A DNA stretch of 64,000 nt from Escherichia coli (GTDB lineage: Bacteria; Pseudomonadota; Gammaproteobacteria; Enterobacterales; Enterobacteriaceae): assembly GCF_003334405.1 (NCBI RefSeq), contig NZ_QOWM01000004.1; one strand, 5' to 3'. Within the stretch, counting starts at the first letter, position 1; the number at the start of each line of letters is the position of its first letter. A program made the translations under genes and the position numbers. The notes beneath the pieces were generated by a model. That model saw nothing but the letters and a program-made list of their open reading frames with translations, did no database searches and was not told the DNA's origin. Shown here one piece after another: positions 18,701 through 21,453 of the stretch.

Positions 18701-19183
18701 TTACTTCTCTATAGCCAATTGTTCGCGCAACTCCATTAAAAGGTAGCCCAGTCGATTCTTGCCCTTACCATGACCACCGTCTCCCCAGTAAGCATCGTTT
18801 TCCGTATGCTCAACCAGTTTTGCGGGCGCGGTTGCCAGCAAGAGCGCACGCAGTTCTGCATGCTGTTCGAATTTAGCGCGAAGTGCTTTTCGCATCACCT
18901 GTTCTTTGACCGACTCCCAGTTTTTACGCAGAGGCTTAGAACGATCGCGCCCCATGCGTGCGGCGACCATAGGGGAAGAAACCCGACGGATCTCTTCGCG
19001 GTATTTTTCATCAAGGAATTTTTGTGCCTGAAAATAGTGTTCTGAGGTGGGCCAGGTTTTCCCGTCAACCTTGATGGGCCAGGCGGCAAAGTTAGAAAAA
19101 TCACCGTAGTCATCGCTGGTGCTGTAGAAATTTATGATGGTGTCTTGCATGACGTGTTGGATCCTTTGTGCTCGAACGGGCAT
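18701..19183 (-). CDS. ybiA: N-glycosidase YbiA (NADAR/DUF1768 family)
   Basis: ORF 160 aa. Confidence 0.9.
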   Translation of the reverse strand: MPVRAQRIQHVMQDTIINFYSTSDDYGDFSNFAAWPIKVDGKTWPTSEHYFQAQKFLDEKYREEIRRVSSPMVAARMGRDRSKPLRKNWESVKEQVMRKALRAKFEQHAELRALLLATAPAKLVEHTENDAYWGDGGHGKGKNRLGYLLMELREQLAIEK

Positions 19184-19268
19184 TAAACCGCATTATGTTG
19201 GTGGTTATTGCGAGCCGCTTTCCAGAAACAGAAAAACCATTACCCCTGAAAACCGAAAAATGCCACAA

Positions 19269-19288
19269 TATTGGCTGTTTATACAGTA
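19269..19288 (+). promoter_or_regulatory. Asymmetric LexA (SOS) operator of dinG
   Basis: TATTGGCTGTTTATACAGTA about 15 nt upstream of dinG ATG; dinG is a known SOS gene. Confidence 0.65.
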
Positions 19289-19302
19289 TTTCAGGTTTTC
19301 TC

Positions 19303-21453
19303 ATGGCATTAACCGCCGCGCTTAAAGCGCAAATTGCCGCCTGGTATAAGGCGCTTCAGGAACAGATCCCCGACTTTATTCCCCGTGCGCCGCAGCGGCA
19401 GATGATTGCGGACGTCGCCAAAACGCTGGCCGGAGAAGAAGGGCGACATCTGGCGATTGAAGCCCCCACCGGCGTTGGGAAAACGCTCTCTTATTTGATT
19501 CCCGGCATCGCCATTGCCCGCGAAGAGCAAAAAACGCTGGTGGTGAGTACCGCCAACGTGGCATTGCAGGATCAGATTTACAGCAAAGATTTACCGCTGC
19601 TGAAAAAGATCATTCCCGATCTTAAATTCACTGCCGCTTTTGGGCGTGGGCGCTACGTTTGTCCGCGTAATCTGACGGCGCTCGCCAGTACTGAACCCAC
19701 GCAACAGGATCTGCTGGCGTTTCTTGACGACGAACTGACGCCGAACAATCAGGAAGAGCAAAAACGTTGTGCGAAGCTGAAGGGCGATCTCGATACTTAT
19801 AAATGGGATGGTCTGCGCGATCATACTGATATCGCTATAGATGACGATCTCTGGCGTCGTTTAAGTACCGACAAAGCCAGCTGCCTCAACCGCAATTGTT
19901 ACTACTATCGTGAATGCCCGTTTTTTGTCGCTCGTCGGGAGATTCAGGAAGCGGAAGTGGTGGTGGCAAACCATGCGCTGGTGATGGCGGCGATGGAAAG
20001 CGAAGCGGTATTGCCTGACCCGAAAAATTTACTGCTGGTGCTGGACGAAGGCCATCACCTGCCGGATGTGGCGCGGGATGCGCTTGAGATGAGCGCCGAA
20101 ATCACCGCGCCGTGGTATCGGCTACAGCTGGACTTGTTCACGAAACTGGTCGCTACCTGCATGGAGCAGTTTCGCCCGAAGACCATCCCACCGCTGGCGA
20201 TCCCTGAACGTTTGAATGCGCATTGTGAAGAGTTGTATGAGCTTATCGCCTCGTTAAACAACATTCTCAATCTCTACATGCCTGCCGGGCAGGAGGCAGA
20301 GCACCGTTTTGCGATGGGCGAACTGCCAGATGAAGTGCTGGAGATCTGCCAGCGGCTGGCAAAACTCACCGAGATGCTGCGTGGCCTGGCGGAGTTATTT
20401 CTTAACGATTTAAGTGAGAAAACCGGCAGCCATGACATTGTACGTCTGCATCGGTTGATTTTGCAGATGAACCGCGCGTTGGGGATGTTCGAGGCGCAAA
20501 GCAAACTCTGGCGGCTGGCTTCGCTGGCGCAATCTTCCGGTGCACCGGTGACCAAATGGGCGACGCGGGAAGAGCGCGAAGGGCAGCTACACCTCTGGTT
20601 TCACTGCGTGGGAATACGTGTCAGCGATCAGCTGGAAAGGCTGCTGTGGCGCAGTATTCCGCACATTATTGTCACCTCCGCAACCTTGCGTTCGCTGAAC
20701 AGTTTTTCGCGTTTGCAGGAGATGAGTGGTCTGAAAGAGAAAGCGGGCGACCGTTTTGTGGCGCTGGATTCCCCCTTTAACCACTGCGAACAGGGCAAAA
20801 TTGTTATTCCCCGGATGCGCGTTGAGCCTTCCATCGACAACGAAGAGCAGCATATTGCCGAAATGGCGGCCTTTTTCCGTAAGCAGGTGGAGAGCAAAAA
20901 ACATCTCGGTATGTTGGTACTGTTTGCCAGCGGACGGGCGATGCAGCGCTTTCTCGACTATGTGACGGATTTACGTCTGATGTTGCTGGTTCAGGGCGAT
21001 CAGCCGCGTTACCGTTTAGTTGAACTGCACCGCAAACGCGTCGCCAACGGTGAGCGCAGCGTGCTGGTGGGCTTACAGTCATTTGCCGAAGGGCTTGATT
21101 TGAAAGGTGATCTGCTCAGCCAGGTGCATATCCACAAAATCGCTTTTCCGCCCATCGACAGCCCGGTGGTGATCACCGAAGGGGAATGGCTGAAAAGCCT
21201 CAACCGCTATCCGTTTGAGGTGCAAAGCCTGCCGAGCGCCTCGTTTAACCTGATTCAGCAGGTTGGGCGACTGATTCGAAGCCACGGTTGCTGGGGCGAA
21301 GTGGTTATCTACGACAAACGCTTGCTGACCAAAAATTATGGCAAGCGACTACTGGATGCATTACCGGTATTTCCGATAGAGCAACCGGAAGTCCCTGAAG
21401 GTATAGTTAAAAAGAAAGAAAAAACGAAATCCCCACGCCGTCGGCGGCGTTAA
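19303..21453 (+). CDS. dinG: ATP-dependent DNA helicase DinG (Fe-S, Rad3/XPD-like)
   Basis: Translation from MALTAALKAQIAAWYKALQE…; ORF track extends 45 codons upstream from 19168 across the LexA box. Confidence 0.93.
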   Translation: MALTAALKAQIAAWYKALQEQIPDFIPRAPQRQMIADVAKTLAGEEGRHLAIEAPTGVGKTLSYLIPGIAIAREEQKTLVVSTANVALQDQIYSKDLPLLKKIIPDLKFTAAFGRGRYVCPRNLTALASTEPTQQDLLAFLDDELTPNNQEEQKRCAKLKGDLDTYKWDGLRDHTDIAIDDDLWRRLSTDKASCLNRNCYYYRECPFFVARREIQEAEVVVANHALVMAAMESEAVLPDPKNLLLVLDEGHHLPDVARDALEMSAEITAPWYRLQLDLFTKLVATCMEQFRPKTIPPLAIPERLNAHCEELYELIASLNNILNLYMPAGQEAEHRFAMGELPDEVLEICQRLAKLTEMLRGLAELFLNDLSEKTGSHDIVRLHRLILQMNRALGMFEAQSKLWRLASLAQSSGAPVTKWATREEREGQLHLWFHCVGIRVSDQLERLLWRSIPHIIVTSATLRSLNSFSRLQEMSGLKEKAGDRFVALDSPFNHCEQGKIVIPRMRVEPSIDNEEQHIAEMAAFFRKQVESKKHLGMLVLFASGRAMQRFLDYVTDLRLMLLVQGDQPRYRLVELHRKRVANGERSVLVGLQSFAEGLDLKGDLLSQVHIHKIAFPPIDSPVVITEGEWLKSLNRYPFEVQSLPSASFNLIQQVGRLIRSHGCWGEVVIYDKRLLTKNYGKRLLDALPVFPIEQPEVPEGIVKKKEKTKSPRRRRR

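Follow-up and report, generated by a model that had tools for sequence, protein, structure and literature searches.

The DNA that precedes dinG in the window (by which we mean the whole 64,000-nucleotide stretch of Escherichia coli that was analysed) is, with high confidence, the known promoter-operator region of this gene, overrun by an open reading frame that extends upstream by chance and is non-coding. The LexA operator found there is real and had been published in 1992 as the "asymmetric dinG operator", and the locus itself, that of a textbook SOS gene, was already known. A new, albeit minor, observation is the spread of a non-consensus base of this operator through the whole family Enterobacteriaceae. 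The analysis presented here covers the coordinates, the chance level of the open frame, the lack of conservation of that frame and the conservation of the promoter and operator; LexA binding and damage induction are taken from the literature.

The start of dinG and the open frame upstream

An 801-bp query (18650-19450) matched RefSeq E. coli genomes annotated with ybiA and dinG at 99.9-100% identity, so that the locus corresponds to the E. coli chromosome with the gene order rhlE, ybiA, dinG. According to the open reading frame (ORF) list and the RefSeq annotation, rhlE occupies positions 17105-18469 on the plus strand and ybiA, which codes for the N-glycosidase YbiA of the NADAR family, positions 18701-19183 on the minus strand, divergent from dinG. 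The dinG coding sequence (19303-21453, plus strand), delimited by the RefSeq annotation, the PDB entries and the orthologues, encodes the ATP-dependent DNA helicase DinG, of 716 amino acids. Among the related loci compared, ybiA adjoins dinG in Escherichia only; in the other genera, rhlE, when detected upstream, usually lies on the same strand as dinG and ends 100-150 bp before it. In an Rfam scan of 18400-19700, the ybiA-dinG spacer matched no RNA family, the matches being limited to REP-derived ES036/CssrF and naRNA4-like sequences between rhlE and ybiA.

The ORF list contains an entry at 19168..21453 (plus strand) that would code for 761 amino acids from a GTG located 45 codons upstream of the ATG at 19303. 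In fact, the dinG frame is stop-free over 50 codons, as far back as a TGA at 19150-19152, and the extension offers four in-frame candidate starts: GTG 19168, ATG 19195, TTG 19198 and GTG 19201. An earlier note, made on the letters of this DNA, had described a frame open for 45 codons that crosses a candidate operator and enters the 5' end of the divergent ybiA, and this description is accurate: the extension (19168-19302) includes the 20-mer TATTGGCTGTTTATACAGTA at 19269-19288 and shares 16 nt (19168-19183) with the annotated start of ybiA, on opposite strands.

The same note took ATG 19303 as the real start of dinG, and it was right to do so. In the alignment, all 80 related loci have an ATG at this position, the orthologues start with MALTAALK, and the distant orthologues start with MALT or MTLS at the same position. 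The DinG chain in the PDB structures 6FWR and 6FWS has 716 residues and begins with MALTAALK, its M1 corresponding to ATG 19303; residues L3, K8, I11, Y15 and K16 of this 716-residue numbering form the SSB-binding pocket according to a review. The 716-residue sequence was found on at least 1000 contigs and is identical to the UniProt entry DING_ECOLI, whereas the 761-residue form occurs in a handful of records (e.g., GCL30626.1). These longer database entries are over-extended, an artefact of annotating the longest ORF. They resemble other over-long ORF calls made by some automated pipelines, in which a lack of stop codons before the genuine start leads to a protein predicted too long, and differ from the usual ones only in that the stop-free run passes through an operator and into the first 16 nt of ybiA. 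The practical value of this result is small: it confirms the start at ATG 19303 and identifies the 761-residue entries as over-extended.

The length of the extension is compatible with chance. The probability of at least 45 stop-free codons was 0.06 when the 300 nt upstream were shuffled, an analytic estimate gave the same value, and the neighbouring frame is open for 58 codons at the same place. With approximately fifty genes in a stretch of 64 kb, a few chance extensions of such length are to be expected. No good Shine-Dalgarno sequence precedes any of the four in-frame starts (19168, 19195, 19198 and 19201), a weak GGA 6 nt before GTG 19168 being the nearest approach to one. A translated extension should also have its ribosome-binding site and start codon inside the transcript; these four starts lie 60-108 nt upstream of the putative -10 element of dinG described below, outside a transcript whose boundary is itself predicted. 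If that promoter is correct, all of them would be outside the dinG mRNA, because the predicted transcription start is at ~19276.

Comparison with other species points in the same direction. In a set of 80 dinG loci from other species of Enterobacteriaceae, the stop-free run upstream of dinG ranges from 1 to 123 codons, so that its length is not conserved, and 1-nt insertions or deletions in the leader shift the frame from one species to another. Thus, neither the conserved open frame nor the conserved start codon expected of a translated extension was found in the orthologues. Within E. coli, a deletion of ~300 bp (about 18900-19198) removes the 5' end of ybiA in 1121 of 5426 complete genomes, and strain E69 lacks ybiA altogether. 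All four candidate starts are located in DNA to the left of ~19204 that varies within the species, being deleted in those 1121 genomes and absent in E69. In two variant records whose annotation was examined, dinG is an ordinary, non-pseudogene coding sequence with the same ATG.

These data bear directly on the alternative that the upstream frame is a real N-terminal extension, giving a 761-residue DinG isoform (or a shorter one from ATG 19195) expressed from a transcript that starts further upstream. The frame is indeed open and provided with four start codons, the 761-residue product is annotated in some GenBank records, and the representative of the protein cluster (P0002) is the 761-residue form. 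Nevertheless, we regard this alternative as extremely improbable, given that the length of the frame varies between species, that many E. coli genomes lack the DNA holding its candidate starts, that its chance probability is 0.06 and it has no good Shine-Dalgarno sequence, and that the form found on at least 1000 contigs, in UniProt and in the PDB is the 716-residue one. In addition, the upstream neighbour ybiA is divergent and no co-directional read-through from it is expected. The 45-codon extension is untranslated intergenic DNA that lacks stop codons by chance, and the overlap with ybiA is functionally meaningless.

A probable promoter and leader of dinG

The most conserved part of the spacer is the stretch immediately before the gene. 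When the 100 nt preceding the dinG start were aligned (78 distinct sequences), positions 19258-19290 proved nearly invariant, reading AAA(A/G)TGcCACAAT followed by the operator, and the sequence further upstream was poorly conserved. This pattern suggests an extended -10 element, TGcCACAAT, at 19261-19269 on the plus strand, with the TG at 19261-62 and the hexamer at 19264-69. All 80 species have the TG as well as A and T at hexamer positions 2 and 6, respectively; with the TG one base before the hexamer, A2 and T6, the element has the sequence characteristics of an extended -10 sigma-70 promoter, a type in which the -35 is dispensable. A weak -35-like hexamer, TTACCC, might be located at 19240-19245 (plus strand), with an 18-nt spacer. 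In Enterobacter, the equivalent -35 is TTGCGA, separated by 17 nt from CACAAT; it is provided by the run of Ts in the rhlE terminator. A consensus promoter and terminator scan of 19000-19450 in E. coli returned no match, an outcome that would be expected of an extended -10 promoter with a poor -35 but does not in itself speak for one.

Transcription would start ~6-8 nt past the -10 hexamer, at about 19275-19277 on the plus strand, a region predicted from the position of the promoter. Both the -10 element and the start site of dinG are thus probable assignments made from sequence conservation. Downstream, a Shine-Dalgarno-like CAGG (19292-19295, plus strand) lies 7 nt before ATG 19303 within TTCAGGTT, a block shared by 80-90% of the sequences in the alignment.

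Base 1 of the operator is the last T of the putative -10 hexamer, the only base that it has in common with the conserved extended -10 sequence, and the predicted start region falls inside the operator. We propose that an extended -10 sigma-70 promoter, TGcCACAAT with its poor -35, would direct transcription from ~19276, producing a 5' untranslated region of about 27 nt with the weak Shine-Dalgarno CAGG, and that translation from ATG 19303 would yield the 716-residue helicase. A LexA dimer bound to the 20-bp operator at 19269-19288 would most likely act by excluding RNA polymerase, because the operator shares a base with the -10 hexamer and covers the predicted start site. With TTG in place of CTG in the left half-site, LexA may bind weakly and dissociate fast; as a consequence of such weak binding and fast exit, dinG would be partly repressed and derepressed early, at low doses of damage.

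An asymmetric LexA operator

The 20-mer TATTGGCTGTTTATACAGTA (19269-19288, plus strand), which ends 14 nt before ATG 19303, is the LexA operator (SOS box) of dinG, an identification based on a matrix scan, on conservation and on PMC8265657, which cites Lewis & Mount 1992. The earlier note had already proposed this 20-mer as a LexA operator, a proposal now supported by its near-invariance across 80 species and by its score with the LexA matrix, the best of any site in the window. It is identical over its 20 bp to the asymmetric dinG operator of E. coli (Lewis & Mount 1992, J Bacteriol 174:5110; Lewis, Jenkins & Mount 1992, 174:3377) and there is no difference between the two, since the window holds that very locus. 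With a matrix derived from 24 LexA sites of E. coli (dinG excluded), the heterology index of the site was 11.9 (plus orientation), 7.4 (minus orientation) and 10.5 (symmetrised matrix), values that are approximate in absolute terms. These values are below the usual cut-off of about 15, as given in PMC11002266, and better than background, with 0.09 sites as good as the dinG operator expected per 64 kb of random sequence. For the dinG box of Salmonella, PMC8072944 gives a heterology index of 10.08 and a distance of 14 bp from the ATG.

The asymmetry of the operator is best seen in its register. In the LexA register, it consists of TTG (19271-73), ten intervening bases and CAG (19284-86), and its right half, ATACAGTA, is canonical and a perfect match. 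The literal CTG at 19275-77, which coincides with the predicted transcription start region, is out of register, only 6 nt (N6) from the CAG. A search for the pattern CTG-N10-CAG did not include the dinG site among its matches; by this search, the site does not have the conserved trimers of an SOS box. The description of the box as half-canonical in the earlier note therefore stands as far as the asymmetry and the canonical right half are concerned, but the "CTG…CAG core" invoked there misreads the register, which is TTG-N10-CAG. The literature agrees with this alignment: in PMC8265657, which cites Lewis & Mount 1992, the dinG SOS box is noncanonical and experimentally characterised, with TTG replacing CTG, and Culyba et al. 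2018 place the deviation of the dinG operator in the CAG/CTG motif.

Canonical SOS boxes, TACTG(TA)5CAGTA (such as those of recA, sulA and umuDC), share with the dinG operator the length of 20 bp, the right half ATACAGTA and an AT-rich centre; if the predicted promoter is correct, the dinG operator would, like them, lie over the promoter and start site of a damage-inducible gene. They differ from it in the left trimer, which in dinG is TTG instead of CTG, and at positions 6-9, which are GCTG instead of TATA. The heterology index of the dinG operator is about 10-12 as compared with about 1-9 for the stronger sites in the matrix, and the behaviour of dinG is distinct in being early and low-threshold.

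Weak repression, predicted in the earlier note from the imperfect symmetry of the box, is in line with the published data: an early promoter, a low UV threshold and a modest induction. As reported in PMC5999292, dinG has an "early" promoter with a low ED50. For 28 native operators of E. coli, Culyba et al. 2018 measured how fast LexA dissociates and determined its Kd by EMSA; they also transplanted the dinG operator into the recA promoter and class dinG as an early promoter, fully derepressed below 10 J/m2 of UV. After ciprofloxacin, the maximum log2 fold change of E. coli dinG was 1.69 (PMC11002266), and the induction of Salmonella dinG with nalidixic acid was 10.6-fold (PMC8072944). The checks suggested in the earlier note have largely been done already, by Lewis & Mount 1992 (as cited in PMC8265657), who studied the binding of LexA to this operator, and by Culyba et al. 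2018. The possibility that LexA also controls ybiA from the shared spacer was considered and dropped; ybiA is unmentioned in the two SOS papers checked.

A second element might also overlap the operator. The terminator scan revealed a perfect 5+4+5 inverted repeat at the operator region in Enterobacter and Kluyvera, and GCCACAATAGTGGC forms such a 5+4+5 palindrome in most genera. This sequence, GCCAC-AATA-GTGGC in most genera and GCCACAATATTGGC in E. coli, could be the site of another factor or a hairpin, which might account for the invariance of operator positions 6-9 (GCTG) despite their deviation from the LexA consensus. We consider this very unlikely. The left arm varies (GGCAC, GTCAC, GACAC, GAGAC, GCCAG) in 18 of the 80 species without compensation in the right arm, the palindrome is broken in E. 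coli itself, and chance alone would be expected to produce an inverted repeat of 5 bp in a region of this size. Accordingly, GCCACAATAGTGGC was rejected as a separate element for want of covariation.

Operator evolution in the Enterobacteriaceae

The operator is strongly conserved, with 17 of its 20 positions identical in at least 79 of the 80 species and its distance to the ATG kept at 13-15 nt in all of them. Within E. coli, the 60-mer covering 19250-19309 was present with at least 99% identity in 5403 of 5422 genomes. Instead of the consensus C, position 3 has G in 76 species, T in 3 (Escherichia) and A in one (E. whittamii); no species has C. A homologous-protein search yielded only relatives with at least 87% identity, and more distant loci came from a representative search. 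A locus of the Rosenbergiella/Tatumella type carries the canonical TACTGTGTAAAAATACAGGC 24 nt before the ATG. In another relative (53% identity), promoter and operator are arranged in the same way, aTGgCAAAAT preceding ACTGGCTAAAAACACAGCT, and the trimer is a canonical CTG. Edwardsiella piscicida keeps TGcGACAAT and has no LexA box, and relatives at 39-40% identity show no recognisable LexA box. Judging from this distribution, the noncanonical trimer looks like a derived state that would have arisen near the base of the Enterobacteriaceae.

It is possible, if rather doubtful, that the non-consensus left half-site is held by selection for weak LexA binding and early dinG induction instead of being a tolerated defect. 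Position 3 is never the consensus C in 80 species of Enterobacteriaceae, distant relatives whose promoter and operator are arranged alike (L084 and L086) carry the canonical CTG, the remainder of the operator is nearly invariant, and dinG acts as an early, low-threshold promoter. However, position 3 shows no more than two or three substitution events, so that the absence of C would arise by chance with a probability of ~0.3-0.4 and carries no statistical weight; moreover, the box has simply been lost in Edwardsiella, which suggests relaxed rather than tuned control. The complete scenario, in which the broken left half-site is about as old as the family rather than a peculiarity of E. coli, derives from the canonical CTG surviving in Erwiniaceae-type relatives and has been kept weak by selection for early DinG, is a tentative one that we consider unlikely. 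Whatever its origin, the noncanonical trimer shared by the family provides a modest data point on the relationship between operator strength and the timing of SOS genes.

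Variation of the DNA upstream of dinG

The gene ybiA, which lies between rhlE and dinG in the window, is a presence/absence polymorphism within E. coli. A deletion of ~300 bp that takes out the ybiA N-terminus was found in 1121 of the 5426 complete E. coli genomes, which list what is left of the gene as a pseudogene of a 'NADAR family protein', and strain E69 has a rhlE-dinG interval devoid of ybiA. Homology with the window resumes at ~19204 in both variants. The variable segment comprises the 5' half of ybiA and the DNA upstream of this gene (window ~18900-19204; positions 1311-1520 and 1280-1410 of the dinG loci L002 and L006 from other genomes). 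Among the related loci compared, dinG was never adjoined by ybiA outside Escherichia.

A different rearrangement affects the operator itself. E. coli TUM13064, which carries a ClbS/DfsB gene in place of ybiA upstream of dinG, has the ISL3-like element ISEc53 inserted within the dinG LexA operator (locus L003, 1400-1530, corresponding to window 19274/19275; junction ...ggggaagaccc followed by CTGTTTATACAGTA). Both the left half-site of the operator and the native, inferred dinG promoter are lost by this insertion. The match is broken at the same point in ~6 of 5422 E. coli genomes.

Terminator, repeats and a second LexA-like site

The rhlE gene of Enterobacter and Kluyvera has a strong intrinsic terminator (9-11 bp stem plus T-run; 1407-1434 in locus L054 and 1410-1432 in locus L012) immediately upstream of the dinG promoter, and the T-run/TTGCGA of this terminator provides the -35 hexamer of the inferred promoter. 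In E. coli, this terminator is reduced to a degenerate remnant, TTGCGAGCCGCTTTCC, at 19208-19223.

The rhlE-ybiA spacer contains REP-type repeats, at 18543-18585 (minus strand) and 18589-18640, for which Rfam gave a match to ES036/CssrF that exceeded the gathering score (43.3 bits) and matches to naRNA4/CssrE that fell short of it.

The second-best LexA-like site of the 64-kb window, TACTGGATGCATTACCGGTA (21350-21369; CTG-N10-CGG), has a heterology index of 10.5 to 12.3 with our approximate matrix. Located within the 3' end of dinG, 112 nt before the ybiB ATG (21481), it is probably a chance match.

Atypical DinG and RhlE records

A single NCBI record of 838 aa (P0001) combines the 45-aa extension upstream of the dinG ATG with an internal tandem duplication of ~77 residues, the segment KTLVVSTANV...NNQEEQ being present twice; this duplication could be real or else an assembly artefact. 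In the assemblies behind L088 (Edwardsiella piscicida, 1001-2984) and L086/L087 (1501-3605), dinG is predicted as two overlapping ORFs (327 + 424 aa and 521 + 194 aa), an arrangement that suggests frameshifts or pseudogenes. No LexA box was found at the E. piscicida dinG locus. Finally, the DinG 90% cluster oddly includes a truncated RhlE of 406 aa from Shigella flexneri (P0122), probably a clustering quirk. Its C-terminus (..GGIRLMNKRKTA) is read from an alternative frame of the RhlE Gly/Arg-rich tail (window 18216-18527), which points to a deletion or frameshift in rhlE.
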